This document shows, piece by piece, positions 18,225 to 48,448 of a stretch of 56,462 nt of DNA. The stretch comes from Candidatus Kaiserbacteria bacterium (lineage in GTDB: Bacteria > Patescibacteriota > Minisyncoccia > Phycocordibacterales > UBA2100), in contig JALWOZ010000030.1 in NCBI GenBank assembly GCA_027083345.1, forward strand, positions 66,977 through 123,438, in the 5' to 3' direction. Under the pieces are notes generated by a model, which saw nothing but the letters and a program-made list of their open reading frames with translations, had not been told where the DNA came from and ran no database searches. Positions within the stretch are counted from its first letter, which is position 1. Each line of letters begins with the position of its first letter. The translations under genes were made by a program, and so were the position numbers.

Positions 18225-18225
18225 T

Positions 18226-18876: not shown

Positions 18877-18883
18877 AGATATT

Positions 18884-20731: not shown

Positions 20732-20750
20732 CTCGTGTTACAATAACAAC

Positions 20751-21284: not shown

Positions 21285-21291
21285 TTATAAT

Positions 21292-22326: not shown

Positions 22327-22333
22327 ATAAAAT

Positions 22334-23572
22334 ATGGAAAAACGAAAACTATATATAATAACAGCTCTAATAATAATCTCATTACTCTCGGGATTATCTT
22401 TTTGGTATTTGTATATAATTAAACAAAAATCAAATATAACAAAAGTAACAAATCTAGACATTCAAGGGCCAGAAGATAAGAATGCAATACTAAAACTACC
22501 TCCATCTAATCCTTTTGGTGAGAATTCTACTACAACTACTATAGATAAAGATTTTAAACAAGCATCAAATACTGAGCAAAATGCAATAACATCTTCTACA
22601 ACTACCACTCCTATAGAAAAATGGGAGCTGATCCAAATATATGATAAGCCTGTAGCAGGTTACAGCATAGCAGAAAACACAATAAAATTTATAGATAAAA
22701 GTACAGGCAATATTAATGAATGGTTTGACAATAATATAATACGGCTTTCTGGTATAACTATTCAAAAGGTACAAGATGCGTATGTACTATCAGATTCCTC
22801 TACCTTAATAACTCAAAACAGTACCTCAACCCCTGTATTGATTAAAATAAAAGGAGAGGAAGCTACTACTGAAAGCACTAATATGGACTCCGACATACTC
22901 CAGTCAGCACAATCAAGAGATACTATCTATTACACAAAACTTAATAATAGTGGAGAATTAGTATTAAAAAACTCAAAATCTCCAAAAAGAATTCTGTGGA
23001 CATTTGATATTCCAGATTGGTTAATACAGGCGACTAATAAAGATATAGTAATAACTCAAAAGGCTTCATATAACATACCAGGGTACTCTTATTTATTAAA
23101 CAAAGATAACCTCAAAAATAAGACCGCTCAATTAAAGCCGATTATACGAGATACTCCAGGTCTTATCACTAACGTATCTCCAGATAGCCAACAAGTTCTT
23201 TACTCATCTTTTGGGAAGAAACAAGCGTCACTAAATCTTAAGCAGATAAATAACAATAAGAACATTACTCTATCTGTAATAACATTAGCAAATAAATGTA
23301 GTTGGGGTAACGATAGTTTAGTTTTATATTGTGCTATACCTAAGACAATCCCACAAAATATAATAAATAAACTACCAGACATATGGTACAAAGGAGAAAT
23401 TAGTTTTAATGACGATTTATGGAAGATAGACACAAAATCCGGAGATGCTTTAAGGTTGGCACGAGATACAACACTTGATATAATCAATATTAAAGAGGGA
23501 GATGGCTTGATTGTCTTTACTAATAAAATAGACCAATCACTCTGGGCAATGGTAAGAAGTAATAAAGAATAA
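22334..23572 (+). CDS. N-terminally TM-anchored extracytoplasmic protein, unknown function
   Basis: TM 'LYIITALIIISLLSGLSFWYLYII', Thr-rich linker, then a beta-rich domain. Confidence 0.6.
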   Translation: MEKRKLYIITALIIISLLSGLSFWYLYIIKQKSNITKVTNLDIQGPEDKNAILKLPPSNPFGENSTTTTIDKDFKQASNTEQNAITSSTTTTPIEKWELIQIYDKPVAGYSIAENTIKFIDKSTGNINEWFDNNIIRLSGITIQKVQDAYVLSDSSTLITQNSTSTPVLIKIKGEEATTESTNMDSDILQSAQSRDTIYYTKLNNSGELVLKNSKSPKRILWTFDIPDWLIQATNKDIVITQKASYNIPGYSYLLNKDNLKNKTAQLKPIIRDTPGLITNVSPDSQQVLYSSFGKKQASLNLKQINNNKNITLSVITLANKCSWGNDSLVLYCAIPKTIPQNIINKLPDIWYKGEISFNDDLWKIDTKSGDALRLARDTTLDIINIKEGDGLIVFTNKIDQSLWAMVRSNKE

Positions 23573-23577
23573 ATAAT

Positions 23578-23952
23578 ATGTTTAATATAAAATCACTACT
23601 TGCCTCGATTAGTTATGTACCAATGACTAAAATACCTTTTTTGACAAATAACATACCAAATATAGATGGAGTGGGGATAGCCAGTCCTGTTGAATTATTT
23701 AATGCTTTATTCACACTGTCTATCACAATAGGAGCTATCTTAGCTGTTGTGATGTTTATGTATGGAGGCATACAAATGATAACAGCCAGGGATAATGCAG
23801 GTACAGTGGGGAAAGGTAAAAAAAGAATGACAAATGCTATATATGGGCTACTTATGCTTTTATCTACCTATATAGTCTTAAACACAATAAATCCACAATT
23901 AACCAACCTAGACCTATTCCAAAACTTCCAGAAAATAAACCCAAATAATTAA
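23578..23952 (+). CDS. type IV secretion pilin-like protein (TrbC/VirB2-type, CPR T4SS_pilin-like)
   Basis: 124 aa. Two hydrophobic helices ('LFTLSITIGAILAVVMFMYGGIQMI' and 'AIYGLLMLLSTYIVL') separated by a short basic loop. Last gene of the operon. Confidence 0.6.
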   Translation: MFNIKSLLASISYVPMTKIPFLTNNIPNIDGVGIASPVELFNALFTLSITIGAILAVVMFMYGGIQMITARDNAGTVGKGKKRMTNAIYGLLMLLSTYIVLNTINPQLTNLDLFQNFQKINPNN

Positions 23953-25805: not shown

Positions 25806-27167
25806 ATGACAAATAACACAAACTTATGGGAAACAGCTCTCCTAAAAATAGAACAAGAGACTACTGAGGCCAGTTTTAAGACTTGGTTTAAAGATAGTGT
25901 TTTATTAAAACAAGAAGACGGTGTTGTATACATAGGAGTAGCAACAAGAATCATGCGTGATTGGTTACAAGATAAATATTACAAACTAATATTAAAAACT
26001 GTTAGAGAGATAGATCCTGAATTACGTAATGTTGAGTTTACAGTAAGTAAAATGGTAGGTAAGAAAAAAAATCTAAAAAAAGACACCTCAAACACTCAAT
26101 CTACAGCACATATAAATTCATTACCTATGGATAATTTATATGTAGATAAAAATGATAATTTAAACCCCAGATACACATTTGACACATTTGTTGTAGGCCC
26201 TTTTAATCAATTAGCTAATGCAGCTGCGGAGGCAGTATTAAATAGTCCTGCTTTAACATATAACCCACTCTATATATATGGATCAACAGGACATGGTAAA
26301 ACACACCTTATACAAGCAATTGGTAATAAATTTAAAAAATTATACCCTAATAAGAAGGTATTTTATGTTAGTTCAGAGAAATTTACGGTAGACTACACAA
26401 ACGCTGTGCAAACCGGTAGGGGTAAGCAATTTAAAGATAAATATCGTCAATATGATGTATTAATAGTTGATGATGTACAATTTATAGCAGATAAAGAAAA
26501 AACTCAAGAAGAGCTTTTCCACTTATTTAATGCTTTATACGATTGTAATAAGCAAATAATATTCTCATCAGATAAACACCCTAATTCTATGCCAGGATTA
26601 GAGGATAGGCTAAGAGGCAGATTTAGCTCTGGTATGGTAACTGAAATACCAGCTCCCGACACCGACTCTAGGATAGCAATATTAAAAGAGAAAATTGCAT
26701 CCCATAACTTTGTTTTAGATAATAAAATAATAGAAACAATAGCAAAAGAACTTAGAGGTAATATAAGAGATATAGAAGGTATAGTTAACAATATTGTCTT
26801 AACCACTATGTCAAAAGGTAGAGATTTAAGACTCCCAGAGATACGATCTATTATACAAAATAACATGAAGCCTACAAAAAATATAACCCCTAAAGAGGTA
26901 ATAAATATCGTAGCGGATTATTATAATATAAACCCTACTGTAATTTATGAAAAAACAAGAAAAAAAGAAGTTGTTAAACCACGTCAAATTATAATGTACA
27001 TCCTGCGTGAGGATGTTGGTATATCATATCCAACAATAGGAGAGCAGTTAGGTGGTAGAGATCATACAACAGTTATACATTCATGTGATAGAGTTAAAAA
27101 AATGATAGAGGATGATCAAAACTTACAACAAGAAATTGATCAAATAAGAGTAATAATGAGAGACTAA
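25806..27167 (+). CDS. dnaA: chromosomal replication initiator DnaA
   Basis: AAA+ Walker A 'GSTGHGKTHL', 'LIVDDVQF', and C-terminal DNA-binding 'GGRDHTTVIHSCDRV'. Confidence 0.97.
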   Translation: MTNNTNLWETALLKIEQETTEASFKTWFKDSVLLKQEDGVVYIGVATRIMRDWLQDKYYKLILKTVREIDPELRNVEFTVSKMVGKKKNLKKDTSNTQSTAHINSLPMDNLYVDKNDNLNPRYTFDTFVVGPFNQLANAAAEAVLNSPALTYNPLYIYGSTGHGKTHLIQAIGNKFKKLYPNKKVFYVSSEKFTVDYTNAVQTGRGKQFKDKYRQYDVLIVDDVQFIADKEKTQEELFHLFNALYDCNKQIIFSSDKHPNSMPGLEDRLRGRFSSGMVTEIPAPDTDSRIAILKEKIASHNFVLDNKIIETIAKELRGNIRDIEGIVNNIVLTTMSKGRDLRLPEIRSIIQNNMKPTKNITPKEVINIVADYYNINPTVIYEKTRKKEVVKPRQIIMYILREDVGISYPTIGEQLGGRDHTTVIHSCDRVKKMIEDDQNLQQEIDQIRVIMRD

Positions 27168-27432
27168 TGTTTATAACACTGTTAATAATTATCTGATTAG
27201 TACTGTATAAATACCTAATATATAACATAATAAACTGTTAGTAACTTTATATATTTACAACTAAAAGACAAGATTAGATATTAGATAACATATTAATAAA
27301 AATTATTATAGTAATATACACACATAGTTTATGTTAAAATATATTATAAATTATAGTTAAAATACTTATAATCCACATATACACACACTTAATAGAAACA
27401 ATTGATAAAATTTAAATAATAATACACACACT
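27168..27432. other. very AT-rich dnaA-dnaN spacer, candidate oriC unwinding region
   Basis: 265 nt of mostly A/T. One near-consensus DnaA box, TAATCCACA, at 27369-27377. Three 'acacaca' motifs. Canonical position between dnaA and dnaN. Confidence 0.5.
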
Positions 27433-28542
27433 ATGAGATTAACTTGTAATAAATCAGAACTGTCAGAATCTGTACAAACAGCAATGAGAGTTGTTAATAC
27501 AAACGCAACATTAGAGTCATTAAGAGGTGTTTTGATTATAGTGCAAAATGGTAATACTTACATTAAAGCTACTAATTTAGAAGTTGGAGTCGATATACCA
27601 CTAGCATCTATTGATAATGAGGATGGCTCTGTATTAGTGAATCCAAAAATACTTATTGACGCTATTAAGTATTCAGATTCTAAAAAAGTAACACTAAAAT
27701 CAGATAATAATAAGAATATATTGAATATAGAATTAGAGACAGGAGAAACTAAATTAAAAACTCTAAATAGTACAGAATTTCCAAATATTGTTAAACAAAA
27801 ATCAGGAGATAAAATTAAAATTAAGATCAGTAGTATTGTAAATGGTGTTAAGTCTGTTATATATGCTGTATCTCATTCTGTTATTAAGCCTGAGCTGTCC
27901 AGTGTGTATATATGGCAAGATGGACAGCAACTTACTTTTGTAGCTACAGATTCTTTTAGGTTAGCAGAAAAAAAGATAAATCAAAACATAACAACAGATG
28001 ATTTATCTATACTTATTCCACAAAAAAATATACAAGACCTAATTTCGATATTAGAGCAATTAGACCAAAATGAGTTAATTGATGTTTATATAGATAAAGA
28101 TCAATTTTCTATATACATAGAAGAAACATATATAACATTAAGAACAATAGATGGGGCATTCCCTGATTATAAAAAGATAATCCCATCAGAACCAACAACA
28201 GAGATAACAGTTTTAAAACAGGACTTATCTCAAATAATTAAAAAAGCAGGTGTTTTTTCAGATAAGTTTAATAAAATAGTTATTAAAGTGGATTCTGGTA
28301 ATGATAAAATAATTATAAATACAGAAGACGGAGATTTTGGAGAGACTAAAGATATGTTAAGTGGTAAAGTTGAAGGAGTTGACGTGTCTATATCTGTGAA
28401 TCATAAGTACATATTAGATTGTTTACAGAGTATATATTCAGATAGTTTAGTACTTTCATTTTTTGGGCAAGGTAAACCAATGATTATAAGAGGTGTAGGA
28501 GATAAATCATTTACATACCTAGTTATGCCTATGAATAATTAA
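27433..28542 (+). CDS. dnaN: DNA polymerase III beta sliding clamp
   Basis: 369 aa directly after dnaA. Clamp-like three-domain length and a C-terminus 'YLVMPMNN'. Confidence 0.9.
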   Translation: MRLTCNKSELSESVQTAMRVVNTNATLESLRGVLIIVQNGNTYIKATNLEVGVDIPLASIDNEDGSVLVNPKILIDAIKYSDSKKVTLKSDNNKNILNIELETGETKLKTLNSTEFPNIVKQKSGDKIKIKISSIVNGVKSVIYAVSHSVIKPELSSVYIWQDGQQLTFVATDSFRLAEKKINQNITTDDLSILIPQKNIQDLISILEQLDQNELIDVYIDKDQFSIYIEETYITLRTIDGAFPDYKKIIPSEPTTEITVLKQDLSQIIKKAGVFSDKFNKIVIKVDSGNDKIIINTEDGDFGETKDMLSGKVEGVDVSISVNHKYILDCLQSIYSDSLVLSFFGQGKPMIIRGVGDKSFTYLVMPMNN

Positions 28543-28543
28543 T

Positions 28544-28801
28544 ATGAAAACAGTCGGAGATTTATTAAGTAGGTTCAAAAAAATAAGAGCTCCAGAGAGG
28601 TGGGTTAAGGAAGCTGTAATAAAATCCATAGAAGAGATTGTAAATATAAAACTAGATCCTAATGAAATTAGAGTTCATAATAACATATTGTTTTTAACAA
28701 CAAAATCTACAATTAAAAATTTAATTTTTGAGGATAAAATAAATATAATATCAAGAACCAATAATATACTTGGTGTAAATCATATAAAATATATTAAATA
28801 G
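28544..28801 (+). CDS. small DUF721/DciA-like protein (tentative)
   Basis: 85 aa immediately after dnaN. The pattern '...EIRVHNNILFLTTKSTIKNLIFEDKINIISRTNNILG' resembles the DUF721 core. The call rests on position plus this weak motif. Confidence 0.35.
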   Translation: MKTVGDLLSRFKKIRAPERWVKEAVIKSIEEIVNIKLDPNEIRVHNNILFLTTKSTIKNLIFEDKINIISRTNNILGVNHIKYIK

Positions 28802-28804
28802 TTT

Positions 28805-31207
28805 TTATTTTGTGTTAAAAGACACAGAGTCTGTTACAGTACCTCCAAAATCTCCCATAAAGCCAATAACTTTAATAGTACTCATATTGTAATTATTTTT
28901 AGGTACAATAGTCATACTAAATGGTTTCTTTATAGATGTACCAACATAAACACCATCTAAGAAGTATTGGACTTTTGATATTTTATCTGTACCTCCTAAT
29001 TTAATTGTTATAGGTATTCCGGATTGTATTGTTGAGTTTTGAGAAGGGTTTAGTATTTTTATATTTGATAAATTTGTATTAATATTATTAGTTGTAGATT
29101 GTTGGTTGATAGGTATATTATCAGGAGTGGTAGTCCCAATATTTATATTATTTGCCCATAATTGCACAGGATATTCCCAGTTTGAGTATTCGGGATCGTC
29201 AGTAGATGTCTTAGATGTAGAATCAAGAGGGTTATCTTTATTTATAAAATATAAAATTGAATGTGCTCCTCCTGCCTTTTTAAAAGCACCTACCCAATCA
29301 CCATTAAGAATAGGTTTAATATCTTCTGGTAGAGGTTCAGGTGCTTTAAAACTTTCATTCTTTGTTAAAGGTAACACCTCGTCCATATAGGCTCTCCACA
29401 TTGGGGCTATCACAAATCCGGCAACTTTCTTAACAATTGGAGAGTTATTATTATTACCAGCCCAAGTTCCAACAGCTATGTCTGGTGTATAACCAACAAC
29501 CCATACATCCCTAAAGTCGTTAGTTGTACCTGTTTTAGCTGCTACATCTCTACCTTCAAAATATAAAAAAGATCTGCGTCCATATGATGGAGTCCTCGCA
29601 ACATTGTCGGATAGGATGTCGGAGACTGTCCTAGCTGCATTTGCAGAGAGTACCCTTTTAGGATTAGACTCATACTCTTCAAGTATATTACCAGAAGCAT
29701 CTTCTACTTTTAATATACCTGTAGTTTTATTATAGATACCATCATTTGCAAATACAGCGTAGGCACCTGTTAGCTCAAGAGGTGTTACCTCACCTCCACC
29801 AAGTACCAAAGACAAACCATAATGTTTAGCGTCTTTTGTTAGGCTCTCAATACCCATTAGACGTGCTTTCTCTAAAGCGTTTTCTATCCCAACTAAATGT
29901 AACATTTTTACAGCTGGTACATTTACAGATTGTGCTAAAGCGTTACGTATAGTTATAGGACCTTGAAATTTACCATCATAATTAACAGGAGAATAGCACC
30001 CATTATCCATAGTGAAGTTATTAGCAGGGCATGAGGTAGAGAATTGTGTTTGCAAATCAAATAAGACTGTTTCAGATGTGTACCCTTGTTCAAAAGCTGT
30101 TCCATATACAATAGGTTTGAATGTTGAGCCTGGCTGACGCTTAGCAGTAGCTACATTAAACTTACCATCAATATCCTCGTCAAAATAATCCCTAGATCCA
30201 ACCATTGCTAATATTTGACCGGTTTTTGGGTCTATAGCTACTAATGCAGCATTTTCTGCGTTAAACTTTTTTTCATTCATTGTTGCAAATTTTTTGAGTA
30301 TTTTTTCCCCAGATTCTTGCATATCGCTGTTTATTGTTGTTGTAACTTTAAGTCCACCTTTATATACTGCTTCTTCACCATACTTTTTTATTAAGTAATC
30401 ACGTATAAAGAAAACAAAATGAGGGGCAAGGATGTTGTGGTCTTTATATTTATTAAATGTTACATGCTCATTTAATGCATCATTGTACTCCTCTTTAGAT
30501 ATAAAAGAGTTTTCAAGCATTCTAGATAATACTAGATTTTTTCTTTTTTCTAATTCTTTAAAATGTGCACCATGAGGAGAGTAATATGAGGGACTTTGGG
30601 GTAGGGCAGCTAGATATGCAGACTCTGCTAAAGTTAATTTGGATGCTTCTTTACCGAAAAAGTATTTGGATGCTTCTTGTGCGCCGTATATAGTACCTCC
30701 ATAAGGCATCTCATTGAGGTACACTCCTAGTATTTGGTCTTTTGTGAGTTTCTTTTCTAAAGCTAATGCTAATATCCATTCTTTGATCTTCCTTGTTATT
30801 GTTTTTTCTCTTGTTAGGTATACATTTTTAACAACTTGTTGAGTTAATGTGGAGCCTCCTTGAGATGTGCCGTATATTATATTATCAAAAACAGCTTTTA
30901 GTATTCTTGTTGGGCGTATACCCTTATGTTGGTAGAATTCGTCATCTTCTATAGCTACTGTTGCATTGCGTAGATGTCTTGATATTTTATTAAGAGGTAC
31001 TACTGTTCTACGTATATCCCCGTGTATATTAAAAAGTAGTTGTTTACCTGTTCTATCGTATATTTTTGTAGATTGGTCAATTTGTCTAGTGTTAAAACCA
31101 CTAACAGAGGGTATCTCAAGTCTAGATACCCACCAAAAGCCATATAAAACAGCAGAAAGAGTAGCTACAAAGCCTACTAAAGCCAATATTTTAATTGTTC
31201 TCACCAT
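28805..31207 (-). CDS. class A penicillin-binding protein (glycosyltransferase GT51 + transpeptidase) with an Asn/Thr-rich, Ig-like C-terminal extension
   Basis: N-terminal TM. GT51 motifs 'EDDEFYQHKGIRP' and 'GGSTLTQQVVKN'. Transpeptidase motifs 'STFKP', 'SVN' and 'KTGTT'. Confidence 0.93.
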   Translation of the reverse strand: MVRTIKILALVGFVATLSAVLYGFWWVSRLEIPSVSGFNTRQIDQSTKIYDRTGKQLLFNIHGDIRRTVVPLNKISRHLRNATVAIEDDEFYQHKGIRPTRILKAVFDNIIYGTSQGGSTLTQQVVKNVYLTREKTITRKIKEWILALALEKKLTKDQILGVYLNEMPYGGTIYGAQEASKYFFGKEASKLTLAESAYLAALPQSPSYYSPHGAHFKELEKRKNLVLSRMLENSFISKEEYNDALNEHVTFNKYKDHNILAPHFVFFIRDYLIKKYGEEAVYKGGLKVTTTINSDMQESGEKILKKFATMNEKKFNAENAALVAIDPKTGQILAMVGSRDYFDEDIDGKFNVATAKRQPGSTFKPIVYGTAFEQGYTSETVLFDLQTQFSTSCPANNFTMDNGCYSPVNYDGKFQGPITIRNALAQSVNVPAVKMLHLVGIENALEKARLMGIESLTKDAKHYGLSLVLGGGEVTPLELTGAYAVFANDGIYNKTTGILKVEDASGNILEEYESNPKRVLSANAARTVSDILSDNVARTPSYGRRSFLYFEGRDVAAKTGTTNDFRDVWVVGYTPDIAVGTWAGNNNNSPIVKKVAGFVIAPMWRAYMDEVLPLTKNESFKAPEPLPEDIKPILNGDWVGAFKKAGGAHSILYFINKDNPLDSTSKTSTDDPEYSNWEYPVQLWANNINIGTTTPDNIPINQQSTTNNINTNLSNIKILNPSQNSTIQSGIPITIKLGGTDKISKVQYFLDGVYVGTSIKKPFSMTIVPKNNYNMSTIKVIGFMGDFGGTVTDSVSFNTK

Positions 31208-39013: not shown

Positions 39014-42000
39014 ATGTCCAATGCTTTTAATGTGCTTTATAGACTATTTGCACCTTTGTTGGTTGTGGTACTTATAATTGTAGGGGTTGATTTAAGCTCC
39101 GGACTTATTAAAAACTCTCAAAGAGTACAAACAGCTATAGCCGGAGAGACTAGTGGTGATAAGACTGGAGAGAAAGCCAACTTGAATCCGTTTGCAAATG
39201 ACTATTCATTAAAGAGCGGTAAGTGTCCAATGGGTATAACTAAAGTTGTGCCGGACTCCTGTCCTAAAAAAGATATATTTGGCCGTTGTGTGCCTGGTCA
39301 GGTTTGTAAGGCGACCATAGTTAACAATGGTACAAAAATAGTTGTTAAAGGGTTCTTTAAGCCTGAGGATTGTTGTATAGCGGTTAAATACCCTGCCCCT
39401 AAGAGGGAAGGTTTCAAAATTAAACTGGAAGATATATTAAAAGGACTCGAGGGACTTAAGAGCTTAATGGGGGGAGGTGGAGGAGGAAGTATACCTGCTC
39501 CAGATGGAGGAGGGAATAAAAGTGGTAAGGCTCCTAGTTGTAGTAGCGCTACTGTCATACCATCCTCTCCTATAAATCCGGGAGACAGCGCAACTATAAC
39601 TTGGCTTATAGAGGGGGGGAAACCAGACAAGGTCAGTATATCGCCTGGTATTGGGTTAGTGCATGGTAGTAGTGTTAGTGTGTCTCCTGACATAAGCACT
39701 ACATATACAATAACCGCTACTAATAAGGCAGGTTCTACAACGTGCCCCGCAGTTAGGGTGCATGTTGGCCCCAGTACATATGACGACTCTACATTTGACA
39801 GCGCAAGTGGTACAACCAACTCTACAGATACAACTTCGGAGCAACAAGGGGGTTCTACCCCCAGCTCTGATGGAGGTGTAGTTGTGGGTGTGTCTAATGT
39901 GAGAGGGGCAAACGCTACTTATGACGACTTAACTCCCAAAGCAGGGGACAGCACTCAACAAGGCGACACAAGAGCATTAACTAACAATGAGGGAGATAAT
40001 AACAACACCTCTTATAATTCAGATACCTCAACAGATGCACTGACTCCTATTGGTAGAGATTATTATAAAGACACCTATACTGATTTTAATTCAGATAGTG
40101 TAAATAGTAATAATGGAGTGGGTGTCCAAAGTATTGACCAAACCACACTTGGCGATGTTAATGATTATGTTGATTATCAAGAGACACAACCGCAGACTTA
40201 TCAAAATGGAGTGGTTAATAATGACCCACAAAAGACAAATGGTTTAACTAATGAAGAGTTATATGGTGTGTGGCACAGACCGCAGAGCCCCGTAACCGGG
40301 AGCTTCAGCTCTTCAGGAGTTGGGGGTAATGATAATGCTATAAGGATTACAAATGAGCAATTGCAAGAGGACACCTTTACTAAAGTTTTAAAGTGGTTTA
40401 AGGGCACGTTTTGTTTTTGGTGTAATGACACTACTGCGTATGTAGATTCTAATAGTCAAGTAGCCAGACCCGCCATTAATTGGGGTAATCCAGCTCCTTA
40501 TTACATAGGCAGTAAACCATCTGAGGATCAAAACAATTATAATGTTTCACCTTTTACTCCAGAGCAATTGCAGCAAATGATAGAGAGCACTTCTGGTGGT
40601 AACTCAGATGAAACCACTAATAATAAACCACCATCCCAAGTCCTTGAGAGTTCTAATTGTTTCAAATTAATTCATTTAGAGGATGGTAGTAATAAGAGAA
40701 TAAATGTGTGTTCTCCAACCCTAAATACATCCTATGATCAATTAATAAAGGATTGTACTAATAGAGGCGGAGTTTTGAGTGGAATTGGCTTAGGAAGTCT
40801 TAGGTGTATAGTCAATGACCACCTAACTTCACTGGGTTGGTCATTTGATTGGACTCTACCAGGTAGAAACGGTCAACCAGTAAGACATAAAATATTGCAC
40901 ATAGGAGTTGTTGACACCGCACAGCAGATTACTAAAAACATTCAAGATTCCAATAAAGATATAAAACAATTTACAATTACAAAAAACAACACTCAAGATA
41001 AGTATAATTTTACAGTGTTTAAAAAGGGTTGGTATAGAAATAATTGGTTAGAAGTTTGGATAACTCATAATAATATAAAAGATGGAAATATCACATTTAT
41101 AGGCAAGAGAAAGGCTTCAGTGTCATGTAAATCTGATAAATTAGCAATAGTAGGTAATCTACATACACCCATTGGGGGTTCTCCACTTGAAAATGTCGAT
41201 TCTTATTATGAAAAAATTGTTGGTGATTATAAGATAGACCTAACAGATGGGCAAAAGACACCAGATGATTGGGACGGATTCTTAGGTTATGGATTTTATT
41301 GTGGAGATGTAAAGGGTGCCACTGTTGGAGATGGGACTAATAACACTAACACACAAAGTCAGCAACCCGCAGAGACACCACAGAGCCCAACCAGTACTAG
41401 GAATGTTATAGGAGGATACCCGAATTCAAACATCGGAATGCCAGATCCTCCTAGTGGCACAGATAAAACACAAACTCCAGACACATCGTACGATCAATTA
41501 ATAAAGGATTGTGCTAATAGAGGCGGAGTTTTGAGTGGAGTTGGCTTAGGAAGTCTTAGGTGTGTTAAATCTCCTACTCCCAATCCTTCTGTTTCTACAC
41601 CAACACCAACAAGTGCAGGACAACCCAAAACACGCTCCGGTTTTGACAATGTCCAATTTGGCGATGGTGTAGAGTGTCAAAGTGGATATAAGAATATAGG
41701 AGGTAGGTGTGTTTATTTTGGATATTCAACACAAACAGGTACAGAACATCAACAGACTACCAGTAACCCTCTACCATCTAATATACAAGAGGTTCCATCC
41801 CTTCAACCACAAGTAACTCAACAATCAACTTCAGATACACAAAATACACAATATACTCAACCATACCCACAACCCCCACAGTACAGACAACAACCTCCTG
41901 TCTACATACAACAGCAACCACAACAGCGACCATATTATGCACAACAACCAAATAGGTTACCTAAAAAACAAAAGAAGGAGAAGAGTTGGTTTGAGAAGTT

Positions 42001-42739
42001 GATAGACTCTCTAAAGGGCGGTACAGGTAGCGGAGGTAGAGGTGGTGATAATAATTCTAATAGAGATAATCCTAATAACAACAACACAGATAACAATACA
42101 GATCAGCCTAAATTCCCAGAGGTTGTGGCTAAGCCACAATGTATATCTTTTGAGTCAAATAAGATAGAGATTAACAAAGGCGATGAGATAGTGTTGCAAT
42201 GGGTGGTTAAAGGAGCTACTAAATTGATAATATCTCCAAAGGTAGAGGTTATCACCGTGTCTAATAGCTCTGGAGACAAAAAACAAATAGCTAAGGCCAC
42301 TCCTGATAACTCTGTGAAGTATACGTTAACAGCAATAAACAAAGATGGAGACTCACACACTTGCCAAACTAAGCAAATTGTAGTCAAAGACGAGACACCA
42401 GCTCCTGTGTGTAGTGGAGCAATAGATAATGTAGATATATCCGTAGATCCGGAGAGTATAACCAGACCAGCCTGCGACCCTGAGTTAAATGGAGACGAGT
42501 GTGATAACGCTTGGGATGGTAAACCTATTAAAATAAAATGGAGTGTAACACCTAATGAGTGTATTGCTAATTGTGTAGTCGGCAATCAAGATGGAGAGAT
42601 CTGGACGAGTAAAGAGGACTTAGAAAAGGGAGAGAATACGGGTCAACTTAGAGATACAAGTATATTTAAAATACAATGTACAGACGGAGTTGGTAATAGT
42701 GTAGATGCACAAACTGAGGCTAAAGTCATACAACAATAA
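39014..42739 (+). CDS. 1241-aa membrane-anchored surface protein with Ig-like Cys-bounded modules and low-complexity tracts
   Basis: N-terminal anchor 'LFAPLLVVVLIIVGVDL' and a Gly run. Three modules of pattern C...I.W...[KT]Y.[IL].A...C (about 39534-39765, 42127-42380, 42400-42736). S/T/N/D-rich tract. Q/P-rich tract (about 41795-41985). Internal 81-nt repeat. Confidence 0.8.
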   Translation: MSNAFNVLYRLFAPLLVVVLIIVGVDLSSGLIKNSQRVQTAIAGETSGDKTGEKANLNPFANDYSLKSGKCPMGITKVVPDSCPKKDIFGRCVPGQVCKATIVNNGTKIVVKGFFKPEDCCIAVKYPAPKREGFKIKLEDILKGLEGLKSLMGGGGGGSIPAPDGGGNKSGKAPSCSSATVIPSSPINPGDSATITWLIEGGKPDKVSISPGIGLVHGSSVSVSPDISTTYTITATNKAGSTTCPAVRVHVGPSTYDDSTFDSASGTTNSTDTTSEQQGGSTPSSDGGVVVGVSNVRGANATYDDLTPKAGDSTQQGDTRALTNNEGDNNNTSYNSDTSTDALTPIGRDYYKDTYTDFNSDSVNSNNGVGVQSIDQTTLGDVNDYVDYQETQPQTYQNGVVNNDPQKTNGLTNEELYGVWHRPQSPVTGSFSSSGVGGNDNAIRITNEQLQEDTFTKVLKWFKGTFCFWCNDTTAYVDSNSQVARPAINWGNPAPYYIGSKPSEDQNNYNVSPFTPEQLQQMIESTSGGNSDETTNNKPPSQVLESSNCFKLIHLEDGSNKRINVCSPTLNTSYDQLIKDCTNRGGVLSGIGLGSLRCIVNDHLTSLGWSFDWTLPGRNGQPVRHKILHIGVVDTAQQITKNIQDSNKDIKQFTITKNNTQDKYNFTVFKKGWYRNNWLEVWITHNNIKDGNITFIGKRKASVSCKSDKLAIVGNLHTPIGGSPLENVDSYYEKIVGDYKIDLTDGQKTPDDWDGFLGYGFYCGDVKGATVGDGTNNTNTQSQQPAETPQSPTSTRNVIGGYPNSNIGMPDPPSGTDKTQTPDTSYDQLIKDCANRGGVLSGVGLGSLRCVKSPTPNPSVSTPTPTSAGQPKTRSGFDNVQFGDGVECQSGYKNIGGRCVYFGYSTQTGTEHQQTTSNPLPSNIQEVPSLQPQVTQQSTSDTQNTQYTQPYPQPPQYRQQPPVYIQQQPQQRPYYAQQPNRLPKKQKKEKSWFEKLIDSLKGGTGSGGRGGDNNSNRDNPNNNNTDNNTDQPKFPEVVAKPQCISFESNKIEINKGDEIVLQWVVKGATKLIISPKVEVITVSNSSGDKKQIAKATPDNSVKYTLTAINKDGDSHTCQTKQIVVKDETPAPVCSGAIDNVDISVDPESITRPACDPELNGDECDNAWDGKPIKIKWSVTPNECIANCVVGNQDGEIWTSKEDLEKGENTGQLRDTSIFKIQCTDGVGNSVDAQTEAKVIQQ
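40727..40807 (+). repeat. internal direct repeat, copy 1 (encodes TSYDQLIKDCTNRGGVLSGIGLGSLRC)
   Basis: 77/81 nt identical to 41483-41563. The offset is 756 nt, exactly 252 codons. Confidence 0.9.
41483..41563 (+). repeat. internal direct repeat, copy 2 (encodes TSYDQLIKDCANRGGVLSGVGLGSLRC)
   Basis: See 40727-40807. Confidence 0.9.
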
Positions 42740-42744
42740 TAGGT

Positions 42745-43950
42745 ATGAGGAACGCAATATTAACAACTAGCTTGGTGATTGCTGTTATTATGTTCGTGTT
42801 GCAATTCCCGACAGATACACTTCTGAGTCCTGCACGCTCTCTTGGGCTAGTTTTGCAATCCCAAGCTTCATATGGAGAGCATGTGGCTGTGGTGATAGAC
42901 AAAGTGGTTAAAAATATTCACGCTAGGATACCTAATGCCGAGATTACTCACGCTGATGTACTAACTATTATGTGTATGGAGTCTGCAGGGTTGTTAGGTA
43001 GGAGACAAACCATAACATCTGGGGCTGGTGCACGTGGTGTAACTCAGGTTATGCCAGCCACATTAAGATATTATGCCAGTAGTCATGTTGGAGGGTTTTA
43101 TTTGCCAAATAGGCCCGACTTATTATATGACGACCTTAGATACTCTATAGAGGCAGGAGCTCTTATATACAATCATCATTTAATGAACTATGTCCCAAGA
43201 TATGGGAATACAAGAGGTAGAACAAAGGCAGCCATAGCATATAATGGTGGTCCAGGTAGGGTAAACAGTAGGAGTTTACCTAGAGAAACTTATAATTACG
43301 CTTATAGAAAACTGCCAAATTGTTTTAATAAAATAATAAGAGGGCAATCACCTGTTAATACGTCTATTTGGAAGTCTATGATGGCTAAGACAGTGCAAAT
43401 TACAGGGGGCAGACTCCTAGGTAGGGTCAATGGTGTTGCCTCAGCTATACCATCTATAAATACAGCCCCAAGATTGGTAGATAAAATAACCGCTTCTAAT
43501 AATCAATGGTGGCAGTCTAGTGCAGGGAGGAGGGTCGCACAGAGTCAGCTTTTGGCTCCTGGTGGCTACAATAACTCCACTAATAGTGTAGACGACTCAA
43601 GGACCAGAAAAGTAAATTGGTTAAAGAGCTTATTTAATAATAGTGTTGCAAGGTCAACAAATGGTAATGATATTAAAAAACATAATACCAGTCAGAGTAC
43701 TAATAAAAATATTTCAAAATATCCAAAAGCTAAGATTAGTTGTCAGAGACGTAAGGAGCTTGTTAGGGTAAAGTGGACGTGCCCAACAGGCACTACCATT
43801 AGTAGAGGTACTGCAACTAAAGGTGTCGAGTTTGATACGGGTGGTGCTAATGTAGGTGTTGTTGTATTTAAAAATATTGATAAATCTGAGTATATATTGC
43901 AATGCCTTAAGGGGCATAAGTTATATGCTAGATCTAGGTGTAGCATATAG
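42745..43950 (+). CDS. secreted lytic transglycosylase (SLT/GH23-like) with a C-terminal Cys-bounded module
   Basis: N-terminal TM/signal. 'IMCMESAGL...GARGVTQVMPATL...IAYNGGPGRV' is an SLT motif series. C-terminal 'ISCQRRKELVRVKWTC...EYILQCL...RCSI'. Confidence 0.65.
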   Translation: MRNAILTTSLVIAVIMFVLQFPTDTLLSPARSLGLVLQSQASYGEHVAVVIDKVVKNIHARIPNAEITHADVLTIMCMESAGLLGRRQTITSGAGARGVTQVMPATLRYYASSHVGGFYLPNRPDLLYDDLRYSIEAGALIYNHHLMNYVPRYGNTRGRTKAAIAYNGGPGRVNSRSLPRETYNYAYRKLPNCFNKIIRGQSPVNTSIWKSMMAKTVQITGGRLLGRVNGVASAIPSINTAPRLVDKITASNNQWWQSSAGRRVAQSQLLAPGGYNNSTNSVDDSRTRKVNWLKSLFNNSVARSTNGNDIKKHNTSQSTNKNISKYPKAKISCQRRKELVRVKWTCPTGTTISRGTATKGVEFDTGGANVGVVVFKNIDKSEYILQCLKGHKLYARSRCSI

Positions 43951-43995
43951 TATTATTTGTTATTAAATATAGCCGGATAGTTGTGGTAGAATTAG

Positions 43996-45396
43996 ATGAT
44001 GAAGTTTGCTAGGTATAAGTATGCTTTTATTGTACTAGTTGCTTTACTGATGTTTGCTGGTATTACGCGCGCACAAACTCCTACTCTAGGTAAGATAGAT
44101 TTAACAGATGTCGGTAGGGTTGCTGGTGCCACTTGTGATGTAGAGAAGGCATATGCTTTTTTGCAATCCAGAGCAGTAGGGCACGGGTGGAAGATAACAC
44201 CAGGACAAGGAGGTAGTCCAGGACTTGACCCGGAGTTTGCATGTAGATTAGAGAGACTTTTTAAAGCTGCTGGTTGCGGGGTTATTTTTAGTGCTGTGCG
44301 AGATAGGCAAGATACTATAAGAGCTTGTGGTACAGATAAAGGCAGGAGAGGGTGCAATGCCTATGGCAGGTCGTGTCATAATTATGGGCTTGCTGTTGAT
44401 GTGGGCGATGGTAGTTGTGCTTTAAAATTGAGGAGGATGGCCCCACAGTTTAAATTACACTTTCCTTACAGCAAGCCTCATATACAATGTATAGAGCATA
44501 GGTATCCTCACTGTAGTGCCGAGACGATATCATGTGGAGGCAGAGAAAATTCTAGGTCAGTCTCGGATATTATAAAAAAGTTTTATGAGGATAATCCTAC
44601 TTTAAAAGATGCTGTGTCTAATATCATTAATACATCTCAACCATCTCAACAACAATCTTATACTCAAAACTTTGGAGATACTCAAGGTAGTATTAATACC
44701 AACAGAGGTATATCTAATCAATTGCCTAGCCAATCGTTTGGTGGAGGCCAATCTAATAACTCTAACAGAGGCGGGCAAAATACAATATATAATTCTAAAA
44801 GGCAGAATCAATATCGAAACTTACAACAACAAAATAGAGTGCAACATTCTATTTGGGACTTTTTTAAATTTAAAAAGAGAGTTGCCAGTATCTCATGTGC
44901 GTCTAATGAGATAAATGCAGGAGAGAGAGTGTTGATTAAATGGAGCTGTGGCGGAGGTAGTGATAGGAGTAGAGGGGGTACAACAAAAATAGAAAATAGA
45001 TTTAACACCAGAGGGATTTTGGTAGGTGGTGGTTATGCGAGACCTCTAACAAATACTAAATATATGATACAGTGCTTATCTAACGATAAGGTTATAGGAG
45101 AAGATGTCTGTAGTATAGATGTCAAAGGTTCTGTGTATTCTACTATTAAGGATTCAAAACCAAACCCTATATATCTAAAGTCTAAACAAGAAATTTTGTC
45201 TTGGGGGTCCGGTACAACAATAAGTTGGTATGCAAAAGGAGCTAAGAGCTGTATTTTGCGAGGTGGTAGTGTTAGAGAGGTTGGTATTAAAGGTTCTGTG
45301 AGTACTGGTAGACTATTCCACTCTACTGTATATGCTTTAGAGTGTGATTTGGGGTCAATAACAGAGATGAAGAAGATTGAAGTTGTTGTAAGATAA
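43996..45396 (+). CDS. secreted peptidase M15-like (VanY/YcbK-type) cell-wall hydrolase with two C-terminal Cys-bounded modules
   Basis: Signal peptide 'FIVLVALLMFAGITRAQ'. 'SAVRDRQDT...SCHNYGLAVDV' fits the H-x6-D zinc motif of M15 peptidases. Asn/Gln-rich linker. Modules at about 44881-45123 and 45160-45393. Confidence 0.5.
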   Translation: MMKFARYKYAFIVLVALLMFAGITRAQTPTLGKIDLTDVGRVAGATCDVEKAYAFLQSRAVGHGWKITPGQGGSPGLDPEFACRLERLFKAAGCGVIFSAVRDRQDTIRACGTDKGRRGCNAYGRSCHNYGLAVDVGDGSCALKLRRMAPQFKLHFPYSKPHIQCIEHRYPHCSAETISCGGRENSRSVSDIIKKFYEDNPTLKDAVSNIINTSQPSQQQSYTQNFGDTQGSINTNRGISNQLPSQSFGGGQSNNSNRGGQNTIYNSKRQNQYRNLQQQNRVQHSIWDFFKFKKRVASISCASNEINAGERVLIKWSCGGGSDRSRGGTTKIENRFNTRGILVGGGYARPLTNTKYMIQCLSNDKVIGEDVCSIDVKGSVYSTIKDSKPNPIYLKSKQEILSWGSGTTISWYAKGAKSCILRGGSVREVGIKGSVSTGRLFHSTVYALECDLGSITEMKKIEVVVR

Positions 45397-45399
45397 TTG

Positions 45400-45472
45400 T
45401 CCGCCCAGCAGGGCTCGAACCTGCGACACACGGATTAAGAGTCCGTTGCTCTACCAGCTGAGCTATGGGCGG
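45400..45472 (-). tRNA. tRNA-Lys (anticodon CUU)
   Basis: Hand-folded cloverleaf: acceptor CCGCCCA/TGGGCGG, D arm GCTC-AGCTGGTA-GAGC, anticodon arm ACGGA-CTCTTAA-TCCGT, T arm GCAGG-TTCGAGC-CCTGC. CCA is not encoded. As read, the first pair is an unusual C1-G72. Confidence 0.85.
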
Positions 45473-45483
45473 ATATTGTTTTT

Positions 45484-45562
45484 AGTCTCATGTTTGAGAC
45501 ACACGCAAGGGTTTAATGTAGAGTCCCTTTCTCTACCGCCGCTAGGCAAGCTATGGGCGGAT
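45484..45562 (-). pseudogene. decayed tandem copy of tRNA-Lys
   Basis: Shares atccgcccatagct (14/14), ggtagag, gggactct and gtgtgtc blocks in the same order as the intact tRNA. It has insertions in the D and anticodon loops, no T-loop consensus, and no 3' acceptor strand. Confidence 0.6.
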
Positions 45563-45577
45563 GCAATAGATTGTACA

Positions 45578-46444
45578 TTAATATTTCAATACATCAACAA
45601 CCCTACCTTGTGAGTCTAAGAGTTGTATAGCCTCATAAGTGTTTCTCCATATTTCAGCATTGTGGTTAAGATACAAATACCAACCACCATTATTAAATAT
45701 TTTATACCCCTCCTTGTTAAAGCCGTCAGATAAACAAGAGTGATAGTTTAATTTCCTAGCTACAAGATCACGACATGCAGGTAGTAAATTTGCCGGCATC
45801 TCGTTGGTGTACGATTTGCAAGATTTTGCTTGCCTTAGAAAGTCTATGCACTCTGCTCCATAGGTCTTAACGTTTTCCGGAGTGGGGGGTAAAATGGTTT
45901 TAGTATCAACACATGTACTACTTAGGGTAGGAGTAAAGTTATTGAATTCAGATATATAGCCTATACACTTATTAGTATGGAAGGAGGGGGTTACACTATA
46001 AATAGGAGATCTACCAGATATAAGTATGGCATACTCTCCGGGTGCTAAGTACACTGGGTCGGTTGTATTTGAGCCTATCATCTTTAACATCAAAGTAGCT
46101 GGAGGGAAGTATACCTTAGTATTTGAGACTATAGATTTTATAGACCAGCCAGACATGTCTATTGCTGTACTATTAGACTTTTTCGCTCTTATGTATATAT
46201 ACTCCTTATCAGGATTCTCTTGTTTTGGAGTGCTCTTTTCAGAGATGGTTATAGCACCTCTTAGAGGAGATGGATTACTCCATAGTTCTGCATCTGTTAT
46301 TTGTAAGGGTGGTCTATTGTTTAATACTCTAGACCAGCTAATATTGCTAGATACAACACCTTTTAATAAATAATAGGCTATTACTAAAAGTATAAACACA
46401 AAAACAACTTTTAAAAAGTCAAACATTAATAGTATTATACACAA
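45578..46444 (-). CDS. TM-anchored lamin-tail-domain (LTD)-like protein with a Cys-rich C-terminal half
   Basis: TM 'FLKVVFVFILLVIAYYLL'. 'EYIYIRAKKSNSTAIDMSGWSIKS...LAPGEYAILISG' follows the LTD pattern (E[FY]IEL.N....DLSGW.L....L.PG). Confidence 0.5.
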   Translation of the reverse strand: MCIILLMFDFLKVVFVFILLVIAYYLLKGVVSSNISWSRVLNNRPPLQITDAELWSNPSPLRGAITISEKSTPKQENPDKEYIYIRAKKSNSTAIDMSGWSIKSIVSNTKVYFPPATLMLKMIGSNTTDPVYLAPGEYAILISGRSPIYSVTPSFHTNKCIGYISEFNNFTPTLSSTCVDTKTILPPTPENVKTYGAECIDFLRQAKSCKSYTNEMPANLLPACRDLVARKLNYHSCLSDGFNKEGYKIFNNGGWYLYLNHNAEIWRNTYEAIQLLDSQGRVVDVLKY

Positions 46445-46507
46445 AAGTGGGGTGTATTTGTTATTTTAATAAAGTATACTGTGTATATAGTAAATAATAA
46501 TAAGATT

Positions 46508-48448
46508 ATGAGTAAGTTAATAAATAGTTTGATTACAGGGATGAGTATACTTGTTTTGTGTACGGTATTTTTGGTCAATACTACAGAGGCTAGTACTAGA
46601 TTTTCTGTTACCCCAACTTCTGGGTCAGAGCCACTTACTGTAACTTTTACAGCTGAGGCATTTGCTAACTCTTGGACAGACTCAAATACCGGCAACATTG
46701 TGCAGATAGTAGACCGTGGTGATAGATATATTTCTTTTGGGGATGGAAGTAATGATGTTAAATTGACCTGTGTTAATCCAACAGCCAGCACATGTCAAGT
46801 ACAGATATCTCACATATACTCAAGTAAGGGCACTTTTAATGCGTCTTTATTTACGGCGGGGTATTATGGGATCAAGAATGATGATAAGTATGGTACTAAA
46901 AGTATTGTTGAGTCATTAAGTATAGTAGTTGGAGGTAATGTGCTCACTGGACAATACACATCTTGTGTTGATGCCAAAGAGAAGGGTAATAACAATAGCG
47001 GGCAGTATAACATAATAGGATTAGGATCTGTGTATTGCGACATGGCTACCAATGGTGGGGGTTGGACCGGCATAACTCCAGAGATAGCCCATCGTAATTT
47101 AGGTGGTACTCTGACTATACTAGAGGGTAATGGTACTGTAAACAGTGGGTTCAGCTCAGATAGGCCGTATACTCAAGATGGTGCGGGCGGGCATACAGCT
47201 TATTATACTTTTAAGCTACCCTTTATGGTTAAAGAGTTTTATCTTAAGGACTATGTAATTATGTCTAATGCTGGACCCAATGATGCCTCAGATATAGATC
47301 CTAATAAATTTACTCAAACATCTTGGAGCGATGCTAATGGCTCTAGTGTCGGAGATGTGTCTTTTGGGTTTGCAAATGATTCTGGTCCTGTCGCTAGTTT
47401 TGCTAGAGAGCTTAATGGGGAGACTCTGCGTAGTTTTAAAGAGACTGTGGCGTGGCCCAGCTCTAATAAGGTATTTACTGGCGCGGGCAGTAAGGATTTT
47501 AGGATAGGTTGGGGAGACGAAGGTTTGCCTAGTGAAGGTTGGTATCCGTGGTGGAGTGGGCTTATAATGGTTAGAGAGAGGAGACCCTCAACTACTGTTA
47601 TAGGTACCGTTAAGATTATGTCTCCAACCGGCGGTGTTACAATTACTTCTACCAATCCTTTAATAGAAGGTTCCGGAGTGCCCAACAATACGGTAGTAGT
47701 TAAATCCGTACATAAGCTTTGTAATGCCGTGGTTAATAGTATAGGTAGATGGTCTTGTACATTGCAGGGTTTAGCGCCAGGTTCGTATAATATAGTAGCT
47801 TATCAATACACTCAGGCAGGAGCTCCTAATGGAGTAAGTACGGCCGGTTTTGTTATAAAGCAAGCCAATAATACAGGATTATGTACACAAGAGATTACGA
47901 GTTATATGAAGATTGGACAATATAATGATCCAGCTCAAGTTAAAAAATTACAGGAGTATCTAAACAGTAGAGAAGGTGAGCGTCTAGCAGTTACAGGAGT
48001 GTTCGATTTTACCACAGAGGCAGCAGTTAAGAGGTATCAACAGAAGTATGCAAGAGACATATTGTATCCTTGGGGTATGTATCAGCCTAGTGGTTATGTG
48101 TACAAAACAACAATAAATCATATAAATAGACAATTATGTTCTGGTCAAATACAGTGTCCTGTATTTACTCAATACTACAAGCGAGGTCAATATGGTGGAG
48201 AGATAGGCAAGATACAGAGCTTTTTAAAGTCTTATGGGTATTATAGTGGTCCGATAACAGGTTACTTTGATTGGGCTACTGATGCCGGGATTAAGGCCTT
48301 TCAAGAGGAGTTTAGGCCTATGGTACTAACTCCTTGGAATCTTGCGGCACCAACAGGCAATTGGTATAAGACTAGTCGTAAACAAGCTAATTGGCTACAG
48401 GGTTGTTATGAACAGGTAACACTAGAGGGGGTGGGACTTACATTTTAG
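46508..48448 (+). CDS. secreted multidomain protein: PKD-like, fibrinogen-like YCDxxxxGGGW, Ig-like, and 2x peptidoglycan-binding domains
   Basis: Start at ATG 46508 (MSKLINSLITGMSILVLCTVFLVNTTEA). 'FSVTPTSGSEPLTVTFTAEA' (PKD-like). 'CVDAKEKGNNNSGQYNIIGLGSVYCDMATNGGGWTGI' (fibrinogen-related signature). 'QVKKLQEYLN...VTGVFDFTTEAAVKRYQ' and 'EIGKIQSFLK...ITGYFDWATDAGIKAFQ' (PG_binding_1-like). Confidence 0.7.
   Translation: MSKLINSLITGMSILVLCTVFLVNTTEASTRFSVTPTSGSEPLTVTFTAEAFANSWTDSNTGNIVQIVDRGDRYISFGDGSNDVKLTCVNPTASTCQVQISHIYSSKGTFNASLFTAGYYGIKNDDKYGTKSIVESLSIVVGGNVLTGQYTSCVDAKEKGNNNSGQYNIIGLGSVYCDMATNGGGWTGITPEIAHRNLGGTLTILEGNGTVNSGFSSDRPYTQDGAGGHTAYYTFKLPFMVKEFYLKDYVIMSNAGPNDASDIDPNKFTQTSWSDANGSSVGDVSFGFANDSGPVASFARELNGETLRSFKETVAWPSSNKVFTGAGSKDFRIGWGDEGLPSEGWYPWWSGLIMVRERRPSTTVIGTVKIMSPTGGVTITSTNPLIEGSGVPNNTVVVKSVHKLCNAVVNSIGRWSCTLQGLAPGSYNIVAYQYTQAGAPNGVSTAGFVIKQANNTGLCTQEITSYMKIGQYNDPAQVKKLQEYLNSREGERLAVTGVFDFTTEAAVKRYQQKYARDILYPWGMYQPSGYVYKTTINHINRQLCSGQIQCPVFTQYYKRGQYGGEIGKIQSFLKSYGYYSGPITGYFDWATDAGIKAFQEEFRPMVLTPWNLAAPTGNWYKTSRKQANWLQGCYEQVTLEGVGLTF

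Follow-up and report, generated by a model that had tools for sequence, protein, structure and literature searches.

Homologous Ig-like modules on a predicted lytic transglycosylase, a LAS-fold protein and a giant protein at a conserved locus of Candidatus Kaiserbacteria

A stretch of 56,462 nucleotides (nt) from Candidatus Kaiserbacteria bacterium (GenBank assembly GCA_027083345.1, contig JALWOZ010000030.1, positions 66,977 to 123,438 of the forward strand), hereafter the window, contains a locus of five adjacent protein genes, P1 to P5, with a tRNA-Lys gene among them (Table 1). P1 encodes a giant protein, P2 a predicted lytic transglycosylase and P3 a protein with a LAS/VanY-like head, and these three share a set of immunoglobulin (Ig)-like modules. 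A preliminary description of this DNA had taken all five products for proteins with a signal or transmembrane anchor. The gene coordinates given there are right, and a hydrophobicity scan found one hydrophobic segment of 19 amino acids (aa) in each of the five, always at the N-terminus, so all five are considered exported or N-terminally anchored. It should be noted that this assignment is heuristic and was made with no dedicated signal predictor. Every exported domain that bears Cys residues contains an even number of them. The intergenic gaps measure 5 nt between P1 and P2 and 45 nt between P2 and P3, and a promoter and terminator scan, which was of little information overall, found no terminator-like sites between the P1, P2 and P3 genes. 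These three genes probably form a co-transcribed, lineage-conserved cluster encoding exported envelope proteins. Relatives of the locus proteins were found only in metagenome-assembled genomes (MAGs) of Patescibacteria (candidate phyla radiation, CPR), of Parcubacteria, Paceibacteria, Minisyncoccia or Kaiserbacteria type.

Six modules lie in the first three proteins, and their positions under profile hidden Markov models (HMMs) made from homologues agree within about 10 nt with those in the preliminary description. The profiles, with 4 to 34 sequences each, define five types: A (P2a and P3a), B (P3b), C1 (P1a), C2 (P1b) and D (P1c). Pairwise BLAST connects P1a with P1b (5e-10), P2a with P3a (8e-12) and P1b with P3a (1e-4). 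When the profiles are compared with hhalign, seven of the ten type pairs are linked, with P-values of 1.8e-15 for C1-C2, 1.7e-7 for B-D (probability 90%), 3.3e-7 for B-C2, 5.8e-6 for A-B, 2.2e-5 for A-C2 and about 3e-4 for both A-C1 and B-C1. The alignments run from end to end, all types are connected, and the real pairs score 22 to 84, against at most 12.3 for reversed or column-shuffled controls. Judged by these profile comparisons, the modules of P1, P2 and P3 are homologous, which bears out the shared module of the preliminary description; the uniform, Cys-bounded build that had been proposed for it does not hold. A bounding Cys pair is found in P1a and P1b (the C types), an internal pair (W..C and Y.L.C) is found in P3b, type A carries both pairs, and P1c is a B-like module with a Cys-rich insertion. 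In 22 type A sequences the only invariant columns are the four Cys and one Trp. For P3a, C301-C372 is the predicted bounding pair and C318-C360 the predicted internal one.

AlphaFold2 (AF2) models the tail of P3 as two all-beta domains (aa 297-377 and 392-465), with predicted local distance difference test scores (pLDDT) mostly between 74 and 93. Foldseek searches with the P3 model against PDB and viral libraries return tandem Ig-like receptors, PKD/FN3-type domains and phage Ig-like proteins. On the evidence of alignments and models, the modules are Ig-like beta-sandwiches that come in three disulfide flavours, rather than one identical module. Curated families in Pfam and NCBIfam give only sub-threshold matches (I-set, 0.41; PKD_6, 0.066), and a Pfam scan found no similarity of the modules to the LysM, SH3b, SPOR, PG_binding or CBM families. 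The module HMMs have no match elsewhere among the 203 open reading frames (ORFs) of the window, and none in P4 or P5, including the Ig/PKD-like regions of the latter.

Beyond this locus, the module family is far larger. P1a shares 43-48% identity with tandem repeats of the unrelated giant proteins P0019 and P0020, and an exhaustive search with an A+B profile returned 6225 representative clusters at E<=1e-3, 1848 of them at E<=1e-10. The top matches are giant proteins in which the B half, recognizable by the pattern L.WSS.NA.SC...Y.L.C, is repeated up to 37 times, and no significant Pfam family was found for these repeat-rich proteins. By its pattern, P3b is a member of a very widespread two-Cys bacterial repeat that has no Pfam model, and the module, as far as such searches tell, belongs as a variant to a ubiquitous kind of Ig-like repeat and is no locus-specific invention. 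P3b, P1a and P1b match this tandem repeat of giant surface proteins directly, and the repeat itself gives weak I-set-like Pfam matches. Two features are specific to the locus, namely the four-Cys type A module, which adds a second, bounding disulfide to the two-Cys plan, and the A+B pair that forms the extreme C-terminal end of enzymes. In contrast to the tandem-repeat giants, the enzymes here carry a single domain or an A+B pair C-terminally and no long arrays. No close relatives of the P3 tail alone were found among species representatives.

The SLT/GH23 head that had been proposed for P2 is well supported. Pfam SLT (PF01464) matches it at 7.3e-7, with 29.2 bits against a cutoff of 21.3, and the same family is present in seven of the eight P2 homologues found. 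The catalytic Glu79 is invariant in a nine-sequence alignment, and Ser follows it in eight of the nine; likewise invariant across the nine are G98, T100, Q101, V102, M103 and P104 of the GARGVTQVMP motif and the stretch A165-Y-N-G-G-P-G-R-V173. The ES, GARGVTQVMP and AYNGGPGRV motifs all align to Pseudomonas aeruginosa Slt structures. P2 is confirmed at the sequence level as a family-1 GH23 lytic transglycosylase, and it is predicted to cut the glycan strands of peptidoglycan. With other family-1 enzymes (Slt70/Slt of Escherichia coli and P. aeruginosa) P2 shares the catalytic ES, GxxQxMP and AYNxGxGxV, whereas it has no superhelical N-domain of the Slt70 kind and no CHAP/NlpC partner domain, has 4 additional residues between ES and SG, and ends in a four-Cys Ig-like module instead. 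The N-terminal hydrophobic anchor is also known from the monoderm VirB1 analogues (PrgK/TraG), but P2, in contrast to these, is not encoded with genes of a type IV secretion system (T4SS).

P3 consists of a Sec signal, a LAS/VanY-like head, a disordered linker rich in N, Q and S (14%, 14% and 13%, respectively), and a type A followed by a type B module. Over most of aa 185-294 the AF2 model of the linker has pLDDT below 50. No direct matches to P3 were found in Pfam (E<=1), NCBIfam or PDB sequences. Pfam VanY (PF02557) is present in nine of 15 P3 homologues, and a P3 family profile matches structures of LdcB, VanXY, VanY and Ply500 in PDB with E-values down to 3e-8. A Foldseek search with the whole protein was swamped by generic tandem-Ig matches in the PDB and viral libraries, and a model of the head alone was therefore used (pLDDT 88.9; predicted template modelling score, pTM, 0.86). 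Its top 24 matches in PDB are all LAS enzymes, including VanXYc, BaLdcB, Ply500, VanXYg, LdcB, LysB4, VanY and VanX, with E-values down to 2e-4 and TM-scores of about 0.5. The M15-like peptidase of the preliminary description is borne out in its H-x6-D motif, and a LAS fold and a third zinc ligand, His162, are present as well; the Glu of ExxH is absent, and Ser159 is found at its position.

The residues of the P3 head divide into those that are strictly kept and those that are not. S99 and R102 (the SxxR motif), S126, H128, D135 and H162 are invariant in 16 sequences. The general-base Glu of ExxH/EPWH is missing, and P3 reads S159-K-P-H162 at this site. In the Cys-rich subtype to which P3 belongs there is no conserved acid at -3 from the third His, the position being held by Ser, Asn, Glu, Trp or other residues, whereas the syntenic orthologues P0006, P0008 and P0009 have a canonical EPWHIE, which is also the head type of this slot in the closest relatives. 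The head of this subtype is compact and VanY/LdcB-like, with ten Cys and without the EPWH loop. Conserved within the subtype are LHFPY (with His155) and HIQC(I/V)EH (with Glu167 and His168), and His155 or Glu167/His168 might act as a replacement base. As P3 has no canonical ExxH Glu, its activity is unproven. Compared with the LAS peptidases of M15B (VanY, VanXY, LdcB/DacB) and the M15C endolysins (Ply500, LysB4), P3 shares the fold, SxxR, SxHxxGxAxD and the third His, and differs in its compact ten-Cys head, in the absent EPWH loop and Glu, in its own LHFPY and HIQC(I/V)EH motifs, and in a tether of about 110 aa that joins the head to two Ig-like modules. Taken together, alignment and model point to a LAS-fold protein with a zinc site, which is predicted to bind stem peptides and possibly to trim them.

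The hydrophobic segment of P1, at aa 3-35, forms an N-terminal membrane anchor. No sequence matches to P1 were found in Pfam or PDB, and a search for full-length homologues gave few matches, low-complexity words having saturated the candidate list. Conservation is confined to aa 1-477 and aa 988-1241, the only parts over which the orthologues P0017 and P0018 and the giant proteins of the related loci L018 and L001 align. The centre of the protein (aa 478-987, positions 40445-41974) is unalignable even to the closest orthologue, and by this comparison it is fast-evolving. It also contains a duplicated Cys-bounded motif of 30 aa, SYDQLIKDC[TA]NRGGVLSG[IV]GLGSLRC, at aa 573 and 825.

Table 1. Coordinates of genes, domains, modules and catalytic-site codons of the locus within the window.
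Feature	Position	Strand	Extent	Basis and remarks
P1	39014-42739	+	1241 aa	ORF call
P1a, type C1	39527-39772	+		C1 HMM 3.5e-40, C2 HMM 3.6e-12; bounding Cys C176, C244
P1b, type C2	42125-42388	+		C2 HMM 8.7e-40, C1 HMM 1e-8
P1c, type D	42401-42736	+		D HMM 8.9e-54, B HMM 1.4e-3; C-terminal end of P1
P2	42745-43950	+	401 aa	ORF call
P2 SLT catalytic domain	42943-43272	+	aa 67-176	Pfam SLT PF01464
P2 catalytic Glu79 codon	42979-42981	+		
P2a, type A	43726-43947	+		A HMM 6.8e-22; Cys 333, 346, 387, 399; C-terminal end of P2
P3	43996-45396	+	466 aa	ORF call
P3 LAS head (M15B, VanY/LdcB-like)	44128-44541	+	aa 45-182	
P3 zinc ligand codon H128	44377-44379	+		
P3 zinc ligand codon D135	44398-44400	+		
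P3 zinc ligand codon H162	44479-44481	+		
P3 low-complexity linker	44542-44880	+	aa 183-295	Predicted disordered
P3a, type A	44884-45126	+		A HMM 4.7e-29; Cys 301, 318, 360, 372
P3b, type B	45169-45393	+		B HMM 1.1e-25; internal Cys 419, 450; C-terminal end of P3
tRNA-Lys(CTT)	45399-45472	-		ARAGORN
P4	45578-46444	-	288 aa	ORF call
P5	46481-48448	+	655 aa	ORF call
P5 fibrinogen-like GGGWT domain	about 46958-47074	+		
P5 PG_binding_1 domain	about 47939-48115	+		
P5 PG_binding_1 domain	about 48194-48370	+		

Conservation of the locus extends to at least eight related genomes of Parcubacteria type. The gene order PolA-holA-giant-lytic transglycosylase-VanY-like-(tRNA-Lys)-LTD(-)-PG-binding-Mur ligase-RuvA-S20 is kept in loci L018, L020 and L021, and L001 has the identical order as far as its contig extends. 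In L003, L006, L007 and L022 the block from holA to tRNA-Lys has grown to 5-8 genes in a row, each of which ends in A, A+B or C2+A+B, and the heads in these expanded blocks are VanY, Peptidase_M15_3, GH114 and several that have no assignment. Taking the related loci together, the endings of the successive genes in this block are A, A+B, C2+D or C2+A+B. Solitary A+B proteins encoded elsewhere have VanY or M15_3 heads. Across the relatives, the A(+B) cassette is thus joined to VanY, Peptidase_M15_3, GH114, SLT and unassigned heads, and the heads are swapped while the tail is kept. For example, P3 and its syntenic orthologue P0006 are 31% identical in the head and 61% and 51% identical in the two modules, while P0005 matches P3 at 75% identity in the head but carries no modules. 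This discordance between head and tail identities indicates domain shuffling and supports the idea of a modular toolkit. The claim that different heads share a common module is strongly reinforced by these identities and by the head variety in relatives.

Individual relatives add further arrangements. GH114 heads are fused to a type A module in L006 (10063-11595) and L007 (4046-5626). GH114 is a family of PelA-like exopolysaccharide hydrolases, and its presence on type A modules in relatives suggests that the targets may extend beyond peptidoglycan. At the P2 position of L001 (6848-7972) the type A module is kept with another head, which has no Pfam SLT match and shows weak similarity to the phiKZ gp144 endolysin/lytic transglycosylase (E 0.007). 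In L020 (1066-5123) and L021 (618-4579) two extra module genes with unannotated heads precede the giant gene. The product of one (about 465 aa) has B as its sole module type, and that of the other (about 850 aa) has C1+A+B.

The downstream genes P4 and P5 are conserved wall-associated neighbours (LTD and PG-binding proteins, respectively) and not module carriers. P4 is an N-terminally anchored LTD protein, as had been proposed, with a Pfam LTD match (2.7e-8) that barely passes at 34.6 bits against 34.3. Its gene lies on the strand of Mur ligase/RuvA, and its orthologues stand with these genes in all loci and are 38-65% identical in L003, L006, L007 and L018. P5 is a signal-peptide protein with weak Ig/PKD-like regions and without a catalytic domain. 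Among its domain matches, the two PG_binding_1 domains (7e-19) and Fibrinogen_C (22.3 against 22.0) pass, whereas the GGGWT, Big_13 and PKD matches fall below their thresholds. Orthologues of P5 are confined to the nearest relatives; they occur in L018 (72% identical), L020 and L021 and are absent from L003, L006 and L007. The N-terminal PKD-like part of P5 (46481-46955, aa 1-158) is missing from the L018 orthologue, which suggests that the domain was gained or lost recently. P5 on the forward strand and the convergent Mur ligase gene on the reverse strand share 11 nt at their 3' ends (48438-48448). The tRNA-Lys gene has the anticodon CTT here, and tRNA-Lys(TTT) genes occupy the same syntenic slot in L003 (13092-13165), L006 (14471-14544) and L007 (7030-7103). 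A functional role for this tRNA was considered and dropped; it is a conserved syntenic neighbour whose anticodon differs in relatives.

Because a class A penicillin-binding protein (PBP) and a Mur ligase are encoded in the window, the organism produces its own peptidoglycan. The C-terminus of the PBP bears a Big_7 Ig domain that the module HMMs do not match, and its gene adjoins DnaA and DnaN (25806-31207), a probable origin region with the lowest GC content (0.29-0.31). A T4SS-like cluster of monoderm type comprises PrgI (17766-18221), VirB4 (a VirB4/TraG P-loop ATPase, 18884-20728) and a T4SS pilin (23578-23949). This cluster (17766-23949) is rich in unannotated ORFs. The composition profile shows no island-like anomaly at the locus, and horizontal acquisition was rejected on this account. 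A PADLOC search gave no defence-system matches for the five proteins.

These features can be combined into a tentative mechanism. In the enzymes, an N-terminal signal or anchor is followed by a catalytic head, a long disordered tether rich in N, Q and S, and a C-terminal Ig-like cassette (A or A+B) of disulfide type, and the membrane-anchored P1 has homologous modules (C1 ... C2+D) on either side of its fast-evolving centre. The cassette may be a shared, interchangeable and non-catalytic address or retention module, which would keep various hydrolase heads attached to one extracellular structure, either the envelope of the symbiont or the symbiont-host contact zone. The tether would let the head reach the wall, and evolution would swap heads onto the same tail. 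We consider it fairly probable that retention or targeting is the common role of the cassette, by which different heads would be placed on one extracellular structure. Several observations weigh against this reading. The binding of a ligand by the modules is putative, and Ig-like domains frequently serve as nothing more than spacers. Types B and C come from a ubiquitous repeat family that reaches 37 copies in one protein, and the sharing of modules is for this reason weaker evidence for a common specific function. P3 has neither the ExxH Glu nor a Pfam match of its own and could lack activity, the synteny was seen in a restricted number of related MAGs, whose kinship may account for part of it, and the operon structure of P1, P2 and P3 is putative.

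The wall that would be cut may be that of the cell itself. P2 and P3 could be housekeeping autolysins that remodel the cell's own peptidoglycan in turnover, stem-peptide trimming or division, with the Ig domains as generic spacers and P1 unrelated to them. Core-genome synteny beside wall-synthesis genes, a module family that is ubiquitous and structurally generic, and two enzyme families that are standard in wall maintenance are all consistent with such a role. However, the four-Cys type A module stands strictly at the C-terminus of every cluster gene across eight loci, which is too regular for spacers, and both the retention of tails during head exchange and the GH114 heads in relatives are difficult to reconcile with it, so that we regard pure housekeeping as possible but doubtful. 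About equally doubtful is the converse, the main reading of the preliminary description, that the enzymes act on the wall or matrix of a host at the attachment site and that the cassette and the variable P1 provide host recognition. Such an attack would agree with the expansion of paralogues to 5-8 module genes in L006, L003, L007 and L022, with the inclusion there of GH114 heads, which are not needed for the cell's own peptidoglycan, with the long tethers, and with a fast-evolving interface as suggested by head swapping and the non-conserved P1 centre. Damage to host envelopes by patescibacterial lytic transglycosylases has also been proposed (PMC11665869). On the other hand, the locus is part of the core chromosome, flanked by PolA/holA and Mur ligase/RuvA, with a class A PBP in the window, its base composition is not atypical, and P2 is apparently anchored N-terminally in the membrane of its own producer. 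LdcB/VanY-type carboxypeptidases are, moreover, typically housekeeping maturation enzymes, and both the host and the activity are putative.

Alternatively, P2, with or without P3, could open the wall locally for the T4SS-like machine or for type IV pili, in the manner of VirB1. The preliminary description had remarked that the T4SS-like operon contains no VirB1-type hydrolase, and Pfam indeed recognizes no hydrolase domain in the PrgI/VirB4/pilin cluster (17.7-24 kb), although its unannotated ORFs could hide one. VirB1 analogues of monoderms are transmembrane-anchored SLT proteins, and many Patescibacteria have no virB4-linked VirB1 (PMC12102498), both of which would fit such a role. Nevertheless, P2 is encoded neither within nor beside the T4SS cluster, about 22 kb away from VirB4, its conserved partners are P1, P3, PolA and holA and not T4SS or type IV pilus genes, and the shared cassette and the expanded paralogues would be left unexplained; we judge this role improbable. 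For P3 by itself, it is conceivable, though we lean against it, that the protein is a pseudo-enzyme, that is, a non-catalytic stem-peptide-binding lectin on a LAS scaffold. The loss of the ExxH Glu throughout the Cys-rich subtype, against EPWH in canonical orthologues, and the lack of a Pfam VanY match in P3 itself would fit such a protein, whereas all 16 sequences keep the zinc triad, Ser99/Arg102 and Ser126 unchanged and the subtype-conserved His155 and Glu167-His168 could supply a base. Other LAS enzymes (MepA and EndoT5-type) use His or Asp as the base. The most far-reaching possibility, which we hold to be very unlikely, is that the A(+B) cassette is a Patescibacteria-specific address tag docking interchangeable heads (lytic transglycosylase, VanY-like, M15_3, GH114 and unassigned) on P1 or a common surface layer, and that these would form a cellulosome-like, host-envelope-degrading organelle at the contact site, with the P1 centre setting host specificity.

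The retention or targeting module favoured here has parallels in known systems. Modular wall hydrolases of Gram-positive bacteria and phages (with LysM, SH3b, CW_binding or PG_binding_1) have the same plan of head, linker and C-terminal module, shuffled among paralogues; the tail here differs in being a disulfide-bonded Ig-like cassette whose wall affinity is putative, and in its occurrence on a giant membrane-anchored non-enzyme of the same cluster. An unrelated set of heads with a common C-terminal module of about 80 aa is also seen with the C-terminal domain (CTD) of the type IX secretion system (T9SS) and with cellulosomal dockerin/X-module tails. Like the cassette, the T9SS CTD is an Ig-like sandwich. 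In contrast, the cassette has no sequence similarity to either, a monoderm envelope is expected for the organism, neither T9SS nor cohesin components were detected among the window proteins scanned, and a tag-like role would be speculative. No description of the cassette or the locus was found in the literature searched. The four-Cys variant and its strict C-terminal placement across a gene cluster are apparently undescribed, while the heads belong to known families as a member (P2) or a variant (P3). The modular design is real but fairly ordinary in kind.

How Patescibacteria attach to their hosts and extract resources from them is largely obscure, and few effectors have been proposed, secreted wall hydrolases among them. 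The locus offers a defined, conserved and tractable set of candidates, consisting of a competent-looking lytic transglycosylase, an unusual Cys-rich LAS-fold protein and a fast-evolving giant surface protein, with a shared Ig-like tail that relatives join to at least five types of head. For enzymology, the Cys-rich VanY-like subtype that lacks the ExxH Glu poses a small question of its own. If the tail is a spacer only, the locus would represent ordinary wall housekeeping. As a targeting tag, however, it would offer a means of cataloguing the exported envelope-active proteome of these lineages and of seeking its ligand on the cell itself or on the host.

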